Shown here piece by piece: positions 12,001 to 15,000 of a stretch of DNA of 47,697 nucleotides. The stretch lies in contig PLCF01000011.1 of assembly GCA_003135555.1 (NCBI GenBank), forward strand, positions 16,634 through 64,330, given 5' to 3'. A program made the position numbers. Within the stretch, counting starts at the first letter, position 1. Each line of letters begins with the position of its first letter. This DNA is from Vulcanimicrobiota bacterium. GTDB taxonomy: Bacteria; Vulcanimicrobiota; Vulcanimicrobiia; Vulcanimicrobiales; Vulcanimicrobiaceae.

Positions 12001-15000
12001 GCTAGCGTCGCACGCCTCGCGAATTTAGGGGCGCGGACTATTGCTGATAACTCCCGCGGCTTGCCACGATCGGAGGGCGACGCGAAACGCGGTTTGCAAG
12101 CCGCTCGATCCTCCGTTCCGAAGCGATGGTGACGGATTCGTGACGGATCGTGAATCAAGAGTCAAAAAAACCGCGCCGTAGCGCGGTTCTCGATGTAGCC
12201 CCAACGGGATTCGAACCCGTGTTACCGCCGTGAGAGGGCGGCGTCCTAGGCCTCTAGACGATAGGGCCGTGGCTCCCGGGCAGAGATTCGAACTCCGATA
12301 ACATACTCCAGAGGCATGCGTCTTACCGTTAGACGACCCGGGATAATCGCATTCGCTTCAACGGATTGCCCCGCCGGTTCCTTGACGCAAACGTTTCCGT
12401 TTGGCTGTGGCAGTTCGGGCAGAGCATCCGCAGGTTCTCGAGCCGATTGTCGTCGCGCACGCCGTTCCGATGGTCCAGCTGGATCACCAGGGGACGCCCG
12501 CGCCACTCACTGAGCCCGCATTCCTCGCAAACGTTCTTCAGTATACCAGCCTCGATCAAGTGCCGCTTGACGGTGTTCCGGCACTTTGCCTCGCTGAGGA
12601 CCTTCTCGATGGGCCACCGCTGAGTCCGCGACCGGATGTCGCCGCGGCGGACCGCCTTTTCCCACGAAGCTGCTGCGAACTCGAACTTGGCGCGACACTC
12701 CCGGAATGTATGGCCCTCGTCGTAGTAGCGCTGGACGGCGGCCCAATCGATCCTCTTTGCTCGTTCGAGGTGGGCGCGAAGCCGGCCGCGCCGGATCGCC
12801 TTGTACCAGGCCACCAGCGTGAACCCGAACTTCGCGACGCACTCGTCCCGGCCGTGGCCCTGATCGTAAAACCGCTGGACCTCCATCCAGTCGTACCTCA
12901 CCCGCATGATCGCAGCTTACTTGCCGGGCGTGCCAACAGGTCGGCACTGTGCGCGGGCGACGGTTCCGGCAGGCCCCGCGGGGGTCGCGGACGATATTCT
13001 CAGACCTCGTGCAGGCAGTCGTCCTCGTCGGCGGCGAGGGCACGCGGCTTCGCCCGCTGACCCTCGCGACGCCCAAACCGATGGTCCCGGTCATGAACAT
13101 GCCGTTCCTGGAGCGCACGCTGCGGCGCCTCAAGGAAGCCGGGATCGAGGACGTCATCCTGCCCGCCGGCTACCTGCCCGAGGCGATCACGTCGTACTTC
13201 GGCGACGGCTCGCGGCTGGGGCTGCGGGTGCGCTACGTCGTCGAGGACGTCCCATTGGGCACCGCCGGCGCGCTCAAGAACGTCGAGCAGTACATCGATG
13301 GCCCGTTCTTCGTCCTCAACGGCGACGTGCTCACCTCGCTCGATCTGGGCGCCATGCTGGAGTACCACCGCGCGAAGGGCGGGCTCGGCACGATCCACGC
13401 CATCCGCGTCGAGGACCCGAGCCCGTTCGGCTGCGTGGTCCACGACCCAACCGGCCGCGTCGCGTCATTCGTGGAGAAGCCCCCGCGCGACGCGGCCCCG
13501 ACCAACGAGATCAACGCCGGCACCTACCTGCTGGAGCGCGAGGTCCTCGACCACATCCCGGCCGGCCGCCCGGTCTCGATCGAACGCGAGACCTTCCCCG
13601 CGCTGATCGCGCAAGGGGCCGGGTTGTACGCCTATACAACCGCCGACTACTGGATCGATTTGGGCAACCCCGAGGCCTATCTCGACGCCCACCGGCACAT
13701 TTTCGACGGCTCGATGCCGCTTGGCTATACCCCTGGAGTAGACGGACCCGGACGTGAGACGATCCCGGCATCGGCGGTCCGCGCTCCGATTTTCGTGGGC
13801 CTGAACTGTCACGTCGCGGGGGACGCGACGGTGGGGCCGTACACCGTGCTCGGTGACGGCTGTACCGTCGAATCCGGCGCCGTCGTGGCCGACTCGTTAT
13901 TGTGGGACGGCGTCACAATTGAGCGCGGTGCGCAACTCAACTGGGCGATCGTCGCCAGTCGTGCGCGCATCGGCGTCGGCGCCCGAATCGGGCGCGGAGC
14001 GGTGATCGGACACGACGCGCAGATCGCCCCCGGGACGCACGTTGAGGAGAACGCGCGGCTGGCCGCGGAGCGCTGAAGCGAGCGGACGCACTGTTAAGAA
14101 ACGGTGTTGTACGGGTACGAAACTCTCGATCCAAGCGAGCGTGTCCCTAGAGAGGCGGGTCCTTTCGTGGATGACCACCTCGGGACTCTCGCATCGCCGG
14201 CCTGGCGTTTCCAGTGCCGGCCGCCACAAGGGGAAAAGTTTGACCACCCAAGCGCCCAGGATGCTCTTTCTCGGTTCGTTTCCGCCGCGGGAATGCGGGA
14301 TCGCAACCTTCATGAAAGACGTCGTGGACAGCTACGACGCCACGTTCGGCACCCGCAGCTCGGTGATCGCCATCGAAGAACCGGGCGCCGGCGAGCGTAG
14401 GTATCCTGACCGAGTGGTCGCCAGCCTGGTTCAAGACGATCACGACTCCTATCGGCGCATCGCCGCGTTCATCAACGACTATCCGTGCGACGTGCTCAAC
14501 ATCCAGCACGAGTACGGGCTCTTCGGCGGCGACAACGGGGAATGGATCGTCGAATTGATTTCGGGCGTCTGCAAGCCGGTCGTCACGTCGCTGCATACCG
14601 TGCTGCCCGACCCGTCACCCGACCATCTGCGCGTCGCTCGCGCGCTCTGCGCCACCTCGAGCGCGGTCGTCGTGCTCTCCGAAACCGGCCGCGACATCCT
14701 CATCCGCGATTACGGCGTCGATCCGAACAAGATCCGCGTCATCCACCATGGCGTCCCCGACGTTCCGCTGCGCGATACGGCCGAAGCTAAGGCGCGACTC
14801 GGCTTCGCCGGCCGCATGACGATCTCGACCTTCGGGCTCATCAGCCGCGTTAAAGGACTCGAGTACGCCATCGATGCGATGGGCGCGGTCGTGCAATCGC
14901 ACCCCGAGGCGCTGTACCTCATCCTCGGCCAAACGCACCCGTTGGTGCGGCGTAGCGAAGGCGAATCGTATCGGCGCCAGCTCGAGGCGAGCATCGTCGC

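Follow-up and report, generated by a model that had tools for sequence, protein, structure and literature searches.

Why a stand-alone nuclease gene should end inside a housekeeping tRNA gene is the question raised by a 47,697-nucleotide stretch of DNA (the window) from a member of the Vulcanimicrobiaceae, a family of uncultured soil bacteria; the relatives are likewise Vulcanimicrobiota. As the first-pass annotation of the window had stated, an HNH endonuclease gene encoding 192 amino acids (12329..12907, reverse strand) runs into tRNA-Gln(CUG) (12270..12343, reverse strand), its stop codon occupying tRNA positions 13-15. Beyond lies the nearly invariant tRNA-Glu(CUC) (12195..12268, reverse strand), and on the other side is a divergently oriented nucleotidyl-transferase gene with NTP_transferase and hexapeptide repeat domains (13009..14076, forward strand; the start is probably 13009, although the longest orf begins at 12949), which follows the host tree. 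These two genes are taken as the right-hand and left-hand homology arms, respectively, of an exchanged tract. The slot between the nucleotidyl-transferase gene and tRNA-Gln holds only a promoter and the HNH gene. An integrative element targeting the tRNA gene was considered and rejected, as the slot has no integrase and no duplicated tRNA fragment was seen in it; inspection by eye found no tRNA remnant upstream of the HNH gene or between tandem copies of it. The 3′ end of tRNA-Glu with its terminator (12171..12203, reverse strand) recurs on contig C52 with 32 of 33 nucleotides identical and is the attachment site of a separate integrated island outside the HNH cassette, in line with the earlier view that the integrase element there is unrelated.

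The HNH protein combines an intact set of HNH and zinc active-site residues with a predicted DNA-binding module, in an HTH-HTH-HNH architecture derived from a structure model. The zinc-finger HNH nuclease domain (12383..12580, reverse strand) retains CxxC ... DH-NG ... N ... CPNCH in all 16 HNH sequences compared, except for one late serine. A tandem pair of three-helix HTH-like repeats (roughly residues 1-45 and 46-96; 12620..12907, reverse strand) is indicated by alignment, model and fold matches, the latter being to resolvase and Tc3 HTH domains with middling Z scores of 4-5; in the model, the repeats are likely to be the DNA-recognition part of the protein. The protein matches PADLOC homing-endonuclease models and, by its homologous HNH domain, belongs with the T5 HegA-like HNH proteins and PHROG 10822/14736. 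Foldseek of the HNH model against PDB returned nothing at E≤0.001, and a profile search of PDB sequences returned McrA alone (E 0.36). The gene is under purifying selection (dN/dS about 0.13-0.19 for 12 orfs), and the frame, judged by length, is complete at 18 of 24 loci of the genus and short or broken at six. It ends inside the tRNA at 19 of the 24 and within 10 nucleotides of it at the other five.

The promoter of the HNH gene (12914..12947, reverse strand) consists of an inverted repeat, TGCC-N7-TGGCAC, followed after 10 nucleotides by a -10 hexamer; the ATG is 6 nucleotides downstream of the hexamer, and the mRNA is probably leaderless. In the source genome, recA has the same type of promoter, as does each of the four nuclease genes that flank tRNAs. 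The motif occurs 14 times with a spacer of 10 and zero to three times with any other spacer, and it precedes recA in 25 of 25 cases. A LexA box, which had been reported before this gene type, is absent from the copy in the window, but takes the place of the recA-type promoter at HNH loci of other genera. A sigma-54 reading of TGGCAC was set aside in favor of the N10 architecture, because its spacing suits only some copies (by eye). PafBC-type promoters, described as tGTCgg-N10-tA-N3-T (PMC8635444), also place a hexamer 10 nucleotides 5′ of the -10 box and occur before recA; in the promoters described there the hexamer is TGTCGG, whereas here it is TGGCAC and is accompanied by an upstream inverted half-site. 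The source genome has two WYL-domain genes. The TGGCAC architecture points to an undescribed damage-type promoter in the phylum Vulcanimicrobiota.

Matches to the HNH protein (E≤1e-5) were found in 35 of 60 family genomes. Among the 30 best loci, 27 are directly upstream of tRNA-Gln(CUG), one is only downstream of tRNA-Glu, and two are at contig ends, which agrees with the earlier statement that the same nuclease type sits at the same tRNA in relatives; the gene is also patchy, frequently decayed and present in tandem copies, as had been noted, and inverted copies occur as well. Homologous loci without it (empty loci) number 15 in the family and four in the genus, where the gene is present at 24 of 28 loci. 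Three genomes had been named as carrying empty alleles: G038 is indeed empty, but G010 and G144 bear the HNH gene, and the labels may denote different genomes. Viral relatives share the habit: 50 of 64 distinct ones have a tRNA gene no more than 150 bp away, against any tRNA at 0 of 17 loci of a control gene, so that the adjacency exceeds chance, and 16 tRNA types are involved. A scan of GTDB with one exact peptide pattern, of which the best 80 of 261 stretches were taken, included three loci titled Proteobacteria with identical gene order, which are probably misassigned.

The tRNA-Gln gene differs strikingly between occupied and empty loci. Most empty loci have a single tRNA-Gln allele in common. 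At all four empty loci of the genus, three of which belong to one clade, tRNA-Gln is identical; all 24 occupied loci of the genus differ from this consensus by 7-24 nucleotides, the nearest being G094 (7 nucleotides) and the allele in the window having 21 differences. The consensus is not found among 75 distinct HNH-linked alleles, nor at any of 61 GTDB loci with 55 distinct alleles from the best 80 of 261 stretches. Across the family, the mean pairwise difference of tRNA-Gln is 23.8 nucleotides for 27 HNH loci versus 10.7 for 15 empty loci, while that of the neighboring tRNA-Glu is 4.1 for both. Even so, the stems are conserved as structures, with 1265 of 1275 base pairs intact in the HNH-linked alleles. 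When seven tRNAs were compared, the two most variable were putative HNH targets. Seven phylogenetically independent pairs were available for allele divergence versus HNH presence, and none went in the wrong direction (median sign-test p 0.03-0.125 over three thresholds). The anticodon arm and variable loop (12292..12323, reverse strand) form the predicted recognition region; consensus windows there survive in none of the 75 HNH-linked alleles. Conversion from other tRNA genes is an unconvincing source of the divergent alleles, only six of the 75 sharing a tract of 15-20 nucleotides with other tRNAs of the same genome, and phage tRNA-Gln genes are not alike enough to be donors.

Within the genus, the tRNA-Gln allele tracks the HNH tree and not recA or the flanking gene. 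Mantel tests on 22 genomes gave a correlation of 0.50 between tRNA-Gln and HNH (p 0.0005; 0.53 as a partial correlation controlling for recA) and -0.12 between tRNA-Gln and recA; HNH does not correlate significantly with recA (0.15, p 0.15), whereas the flanking gene does (0.44, p 0.002). In AU tests of groups picked after the trees were seen, six of eight flanking-gene clades were rejected on HNH DNA and four of four HNH clades on flanking DNA. At the depth of the family, the signal is lost for tRNA-Gln and HNH protein (Mantel 0.06, p 0.27), and AU tests on noisy, query-projected rows were mixed (three of eight reject). Two sister species, G102 and G085, are 97-100% identical through the first 70 nucleotides of HNH, 72-73% identical across the rest of HNH and tRNA-Gln, and 100% identical in tRNA-Glu; these borders mark an exchanged tract that runs from the 5′ end of HNH to the end of tRNA-Gln. 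Contigs from four peat sequencing runs carry a related HNH allele about 90% alike, and joints skipping tRNA-Gln also occur in them, but these contigs, being short and perhaps derived from other species, were left out of the evidence. A comparison of the three parts of HNH with the tRNA-Gln allele was not decisive, since all three track it (rho 0.23-0.34). The homing proposed in the first-pass annotation is supported in the genus by the tree conflict and by the joint inheritance of allele and nuclease; its picture of a nuclease cycling through a conserved target has to be amended, because the target is replaced by a divergent allele.

The other nuclease genes that had been grouped with this one are of mixed relevance. 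Rfam shows only tRNAs in the four loci, consistent with the claim that none of the nucleases is in an intron. As claimed, the PD-(D/E)XK orf (C85:9982-10512) ends 10 nucleotides inside tRNA-Thr(GGU). The HNH gene on C40, however, is antisense to its flanking tRNAs, and that on C64 is downstream of tRNA-Thr(UGU), so neither runs into a tRNA 5′ end. The C40 region resembles the end of a long tRNA array. The rule of one tRNA per nuclease holds in the family for the HNH type of the window, with tRNA-Gln(CUG), and for PD-(D/E)XK, with tRNA-Thr(GGU), but not for the C64 type, which uses both tRNA-Thr(UGU) and tRNA-Thr(CGU). The PD-(D/E)XK protein, found in 11 of 60 family genomes, matches PF11645 (E 3e-34), and its acidic and Q-x-K catalytic-motif positions align with PDB 2OST (I-Ssp6803I). 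It shares with the I-Ssp6803I family this domain and the tie to a tRNA gene, but is free-standing upstream of tRNA-Thr(GGU) instead of residing in a group I intron. Six empty tRNA-Thr(GGU) alleles are identical, and 30 of 32 alleles of carriers differ from them, the other two being the empty allele unchanged; no significant Mantel correlation with PD-(D/E)XK DNA was obtained for 17 genomes of the genus (0.12, p 0.12). The pair shows a weaker version of the HNH and tRNA-Gln pattern and is probably a parallel element, as is the C64-type HNH with tRNA-Thr(UGU/CGU).

The reading that we consider probable is intronless homing, in which a free-standing HNH nuclease expressed from a recA-type promoter cuts rival tRNA-Gln alleles and brings a resistant one. 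It draws on the arrangement of the locus, the empty alleles, the co-travel of nuclease and tRNA, the tree conflict, the tract borders and the promoter motif. The cassette would be a selfish chromosomal unit of damage-type promoter, HNH gene and resistant tRNA-Gln(CUG) allele. Once donor DNA bearing the cassette encounters a chromosome whose allele is different, HNH, directed by the HTH repeats, would cut or nick the tRNA-Gln gene already there, with the anticodon arm as the probable site. RecA-dependent repair on the donor template, bounded by one crossover in the promoter or the 5′ end of HNH and another in tRNA-Glu, would copy in the nuclease together with its own tRNA allele, which amounts to co-conversion. 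The carrier would be spared by the difference of its allele in sequence, with all stems and the acceptor end kept. Occupied loci may also be overwritten by other HNH variants, giving rise to the diversity of alleles. Expression is presumably coupled to the recA promoter type, which a LexA box replaces in other genera, and maturation of the tRNA 5′ end would sever the HNH mRNA ahead of its stop codon. As to the putative entry of donor DNA, dprA is present in the source genome, and comEC was not found in this assembly, which is 84% complete.

Passive cassette exchange, in which the slot is a recombination hotspot between conserved arms and HNH and tRNA-Gln hitchhike while the tRNA diverges for an unrelated reason, evasion of external anticodon nucleases for instance, is unlikely, though it is the strongest rival. 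Linkage by itself makes HNH and tRNA travel together and would suffice to explain their co-inheritance; other genes fill the slot at two of the 15 HNH-free loci (L035 and L036), and some empty loci of other genera have alleles 8-17 nucleotides from the consensus. What argues for homing over passive exchange is that tRNA-Gln divergence is tied to the presence of HNH, that no HNH locus keeps the consensus, and that the link between divergence and nuclease recurs with a second, unrelated nuclease at tRNA-Thr(GGU) (9/11 versus 2/40), along with the adjacency of the viral relatives to tRNAs. Two further rivals are very improbable, and about equally so. In the first, HNH would cleave the tRNA-Gln transcript and the linked allele would be resistant, the two acting as a module for addiction or abortive infection. 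Cleavage of a tRNA by an HNH system has been described for Septu PtuB, with tRNA-Tyr as the substrate (PMC13096335), the changed region is the anticodon arm, and the HNH domain is weakly similar to ZorE. Against an RNA target, the two modeled HTH-like repeats point to duplex DNA, the slot has no partner ATPase or sensor, the nearest relatives of characterized type are phage tRNA-cluster endonucleases, and an antidote allele need not be repeatedly replaced between sister species. In the second, HNH would be a domesticated defense nuclease, switched on by DNA damage or by single-stranded DNA, whose targets are tRNA genes or attachment sites on phages or islands entering the cell, the host allele having changed to avoid self-cutting. 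This would fit the finding that 23 of 27 family loci have either a recA-type promoter or a LexA box, the purifying selection and the high occupancy in the genus, but it requires neither adjacency to the target nor co-transfer of the allele, it sits poorly with the frequent decay and the tandem and inverted copies, and viral tRNA-Gln(CUG) genes beside HNH relatives are unlike the host allele, except on one host-like contig. Vertical inheritance with repeated loss, with tRNA-Gln drifting faster where HNH displaced its promoter, scarcely survives, because in the genus the trees of HNH and host disagree, because sister species with 96% recA identity are 30-40% apart in HNH DNA and 16-32 nucleotides apart in tRNA-Gln while the same alleles recur in distant species, and because the stems are fully compensated, notwithstanding the near-confinement of HNH to one family (33 of 44 versus 1 of 76 in the rest of the phylum), a few congruent clades (G074/G084 and G097/G090/G098) and a weak correlation of HNH with the flanking gene (0.21, p 0.048).

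The mechanism is already known in phages. SegB of phage T4, a free-standing GIY-YIG homing endonuclease in a tRNA cluster, cuts tRNA genes and promotes inheritance of its region, and removal of its stop codon from the mRNA by tRNA maturation has been proposed (PMC2330249). Like segB, the HNH gene is free-standing, flush with a tRNA 5′ end and absent from relatives, but its domain is HNH, and its neighbor is a single-copy chromosomal housekeeping tRNA instead of a dispensable member of a phage array. SegB is described there as recognizing a universal T-loop motif with relaxed specificity, the sites of T4 itself still being open to cutting; in the present case, by contrast, the linked allele has itself been rewritten and undergoes replacement between species. 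T4 SegF, SegG and MobE, reviewed in PMC2988022 as agents of intronless homing and marker exclusion, resemble the proposed system in cutting a neighboring gene and replacing the rival allele by co-conversion; in that account they act on phage protein genes at distances of hundreds to thousands of bases, while the putative target here is the adjacent chromosomal tRNA. T5 HegA has 38% identity to the HNH domain over 65 amino acids (E 3e-18) and an N-terminal HTH, but its N-terminus is not alignable with the HNH protein although both are HTH-like; no paper with HegA cleavage data was found in the literature searched. In the GenBank annotation of T5, hegD extends 23 nucleotides into the 5′ end of tRNA-Gln(CUG) and hegC 14 nucleotides into that of tRNA-Ser, but HegD has no detectable similarity to the HNH protein, and the setting is a phage. 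On a chromosome, all8564 of Anabaena is an HNH gene adjoining long tRNA arrays that it is proposed to spread (PMC8421152); it differs in belonging to HNH_5 and in its accessory, stress-induced arrays, and the account drawn on proposes homing with no allele replacement described. Another candidate precedent (PMC3293823) was discarded, as it describes insertion by a recombinase. The literature searched yielded no paper on such homing at a chromosomal single-copy tRNA.

Intronless homing has been characterized in phages, two genomes of which come together in a single cell; here, a bacterial chromosome bears its footprints, at a single-copy housekeeping tRNA gene that is hypervariable precisely where the nuclease lies and that crosses species boundaries with it. 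This suggests selfish nucleases diversifying a core chromosomal tRNA gene. If so, it would explain why some tRNA genes far outvary their neighbors and would counsel caution in using such genes as markers; at least 75 functional natural sequences of a single tRNA would also be on offer, and the rules of recognition could be deduced from dozens of HTH-HNH variants, each paired with its target allele. A bolder reading, to which we give slightly less than an even chance, is that rival HNH variants cut each other's linked alleles, overwriting an essential-type single-copy tRNA-Gln between species in an open-ended race, with three nuclease families at three housekeeping tRNAs, an undescribed recA-type promoter, and the tRNA operon promoter displaced in the genus. 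Such a race would amount to a gene drive of natural origin that shapes the core translation genes of these bacteria, and it would leave a library of matched nuclease-target pairs.

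The 192-aa HNH ORF lies on the minus strand (12329-12907) and, as the first-pass annotation proposed, ends inside tRNA-Gln(CUG) (12270-12343), its stop codon falling on tRNA positions 13-15; tRNA-Glu(CUC) (12195-12268) follows, and a divergently oriented nucleotidyl-transferase gene flanks the other side. The arrangement of the nuclease against the tRNA 5′ end is real. The PD-(D/E)XK gene of contig C85 also overlaps its tRNA as described, its 3′ end reaching 10 nt into tRNA-Thr(GGU). Two further HNH relatives adjoin tRNAs but do not run into their 5′ ends: that of C40 is antisense, between tRNAs of an apparent long array, and that of C64 is downstream of tRNA-Thr(UGU). 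At all four loci Rfam detected nothing besides tRNAs, in agreement with the claim that the nuclease genes are not in introns. The accessory tRNA array is probably split across two contigs (C83:48687-50280 and C40:1-1558); it holds the antisense HegA-like HNH, an HNH_5 gene following the final tRNA-Gly, and a tRNA call with a CUA anticodon (C83:49917). The element at C85:16430-16525, which adjoins an HTH/peptidase-type repressor gene, resembles a tRNA and was called with a four-base anticodon (ttag); it may be a tRNA that was split or has decayed at the edge of an island. The window also contains an island integrated at the tRNA-Glu 3′ end (1-12170; 33-bp repeat on C52:6932-6964), with a bSEFIR-like gene (4889-6202), a partner gene (6754-7593), a truncated tyrosine-recombinase-like ORF (7624-8151), a BovA-like gene (8223-10331; PADLOC E 3e-69) and a TcmP three-Cys partner gene (10359-11549) preceded by a LexA box (11667).

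The HNH protein has HNH matches under the cut-off in Pfam, matches HNH families of PHROG (E 2e-27) and matches the PADLOC homing-endonuclease model. A 16-relative alignment revealed two repeats of ~45 residues, then a zinc-HNH domain whose metal ligands are invariant. The predicted structure (mean pLDDT 80.5, pTM 0.43) contains two three-helix bundles; their top structural hits are the HTH domains from Tn3 resolvase, a phage repressor and Tc3 transposase (middling Z of 4.2-5.3). The HNH domain is shared with HegA of phage T5 (38% identity over 65 aa); comparison with T5 HegD gave no such similarity. Within the genus, 18 of 24 frames are full length, with dN/dS ~0.13-0.19 (12 frames, synonymous sites near saturation).

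The closest relatives of the HNH protein are in Vulcanimicrobiota (Eremiobacterota), where the gene is found in 33/44 genomes of the family versus 1/76 of other families. In the family sample it was matched in 35/60 genomes, and it is directly upstream of tRNA-Gln(CUG) in 27 of 30 loci (the best locus each from 30 of 36 HNH-positive genomes). Of 22 orthologous flank loci drawn from 30 genomes lacking a close HNH match, 15 have the tRNA pair without HNH and seven have no tRNA pair within the locus; in HNH-free loci L035 and L036, other small genes fill the space that separates tRNA-Gln from the flank gene. Among the best 80 GTDB loci, a set that overlaps with the other samples, 61 adjoin tRNA-Gln(CUG), nine form the first copy of a tandem pair at that tRNA, three are downstream of tRNA-Glu, three point back at tRNA-Glu, and four have no visible tRNA. 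Tandem pairs of divergent HNH genes (L013, L016, L244, L272, L273, L280, L295, L298, L300, L306, L315) have stop-start junctions that are often overlapping or close, with no tRNA remnant seen in between by eye. Because HNH also occurs downstream of tRNA-Glu (L014, L028, L241, L262, L299) or inverted (L269, L275, L285, L015), the insertion point is variable and the tRNA pair constant.

The tRNA-Gln alleles differ with occupancy. Mean pairwise difference is 23.8 nt among 27 HNH-bearing family loci versus 10.7 nt among 15 empty ones; for the adjoining tRNA-Glu it is 4.1 nt in both. HNH-bearing loci are 9-28 nt away from the commonest empty allele and empty loci 0-17 nt (p 1e-6, kin not being independent), and p is 3e-6 (25 versus 14 loci) when the unpublished genomes of the family samples (G051, G029, G021, G028, G019) are omitted. 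Seven independent pairs give no case of a reversed effect (median sign-test p 0.03-0.125 across three thresholds). Of 34 flank loci in the genus, 30 were fetched; 28 contain the tRNA pair, 24 with HNH and four without. A single allele is shared by all four empty loci, three of which belong to one clade; each of the 24 HNH-bearing loci has an allele 7-24 nt away from it. The consensus allele is absent from all 75 distinct HNH-linked alleles, and consensus 14-mers that span the anticodon arm and variable loop are present in 0-1 of these 75 versus 8-11 of 19 empty loci. In HNH-linked alleles 1265/1275 acceptor, anticodon and T-stem pairs are intact and acceptor pairs 1-3 are invariant; judged by structure, they are therefore working tRNAs. 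Across the family, tRNA variability is highest in Thr(UGU) (23.5) and Gln(CUG) (21.1), followed by Thr(GGU) (12.4), Tyr (9.8), Gly(UCC) (6.5) and Glu (3.7).

Allele and nuclease travel together. Across the 22 genus genomes that have recA, tRNA-Gln distance correlates with HNH DNA distance (rho 0.50, p 0.0005; 0.53 given recA) and not with recA distance (-0.12); flank-gene distance tracks that of recA (0.44, p 0.002), and HNH does not significantly (0.15, p 0.15). Correlations are similar on 24 genomes; at family depth, the co-travel signal is lost. Sister species with recA 95-96% identical have HNH DNA that diverges by 30-40% and tRNA-Gln genes 16-32 nt apart; identical alleles, in contrast, are shared between less closely related species. 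Between G102 and G085, the flank gene is 97% identical, the promoter 100% and the first 70 nt of HNH almost identical; from HNH nt 70 through tRNA-Gln identity is 72-73%, and tRNA-Glu is again 100%. These borders indicate that one occupied cassette (promoter, HNH and linked tRNA-Gln allele) displaced another. HNH presence changes at least 13 times on the flank-gene tree. Against vertical inheritance with loss stand AU tests (groups chosen after the trees were inspected) in which HNH data rejected six of eight flank-gene clades (p 2e-6 to 0.02; one was already present, one not rejected) and flank data rejected all four HNH clades. The genus HNH loci and the AU, Mantel and tract results exclude unpublished genomes; these do enter the occupied and empty family loci, the family-depth tests, the protein alignment and model, and the 14-mer and stem-pair counts, and family statistics were recomputed without them.

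The motif TGCC-N7-TGGCAC-N10-(-10 box) is common to all four tRNA-flanking nuclease genes of the source genome, before HNH at 12914-12947 and also at C94:94435 and 12 other sites; it occurs 14 times with spacer 10 and 0-3 times with each alternative spacer. Besides the nuclease genes, it lies before recA and four putatively TnpB-like genes. The motif precedes recA in 25/25 genus genomes and HNH in 21/24 genus loci; beyond this genus the more frequent element is a LexA-type box (16 of 27 loci, versus nine with the TGGCAC form; both in two, neither in four). Its layout agrees with that of the PafBC promoters presented in PMC8635444, but the hexamer differs. Two WYL genes (C34, C36) are candidate activators, and the genes behind the motif may form a damage regulon that is independent of LexA and PafBC-like in layout, through which the nuclease would be induced. 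With one search pattern applied to all loci, a sigma-70 type promoter precedes tRNA-Gln in 4/4 empty genus loci versus 0/24 occupied ones; the cassette promoter may therefore drive the tRNA pair. Since the HNH frame overlaps the tRNA in 19/24 genus loci, 5′ tRNA processing would remove its stop codon, as has been proposed for SegB (PMC2330249). Outside the genus, many frames stop at a TAG in the extended -10 box of the tRNA operon, ~18 nt before tRNA-Gln (L285 and L274-type GTDB loci; L004-L007, L015-L019), placing the host promoter inside the HNH 3′ end.

Other tRNAs have comparable neighbours. The PD-(D/E)XK protein, which aligns with PDB 2OST at catalytic positions, is encoded in 11/60 family genomes, directly upstream of Thr(GGU) wherever contig extent permits. 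A D-stem pair change in Thr(GGU) is found in 9/11 carriers versus 2/40 others (2/36 without unpublished genomes, carriers still 9/11). In the genus, where 32 of 40 scorable loci are occupied (G067, unpublished, included), this link is weaker (18/32 versus 1/8, p 0.046); six clean empty alleles are identical and 30/32 carriers differ from them, and Thr(GGU) allele distance does not track PD-(D/E)XK distance. The sole viral relative found (L379) ends a few bases before tRNA-Met(CAU). Among 20 weaker HNH matches that were fetched, the C64-type gene is upstream of Thr(UGU) in 11 and downstream of Thr(CGU) in five; in six additional loci it is near Thr(UGU). The tRNA-Thr(UGU) differs in 23/23 family genomes. 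In many of them its variable arm is long, which is atypical of Thr and resembles the adjoining tRNA-Tyr (C64:1730-1813; L148, L169, L171, L177, L180, L202, L204, L387, L388, L390, L392). The Thr(UGU) alleles are possibly chimeric and linked to the C64-type HNH.

Intronless homing is the most likely explanation of the HNH/tRNA-Gln cassette. Donor DNA would enter the cell, the nuclease would cut at a site in the rival tRNA-Gln allele of the recipient chromosome, and repair would copy the nuclease and its presumably resistant allele into the recipient. Of DNA-uptake genes looked for in the source genome, dprA is present and comEC was not found. Rival explanations are passive exchange of the cassette, an RNA-level toxin-antidote pair of nuclease and tRNA, comparable to Septu as outlined in PMC13096335, a role of the nuclease in defence, and vertical inheritance with loss. 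Intronless homing with co-conversion is established in phage T4 (PMC2988022, PMC3984707), SegB cuts tRNA genes (PMC2330249), and an HNH gene beside bacterial tRNA arrays has been proposed to spread the arrays (PMC8421152); searches of the open-access literature yielded no description of a free-standing endonuclease by which the alleles of a chromosomal tRNA gene present in single copy are replaced. Among 64 distinct HNH relatives in viral contigs, 58 lie within 1.5 kb of a tRNA and 50 within 150 bp, the tRNAs being of many types (control loci: 0/17), and hegD and hegC of phage T5 overlap tRNA 5′ ends. The HNH family is thus a general neighbour of tRNA genes, with one lineage now established at a tRNA gene of the chromosome.
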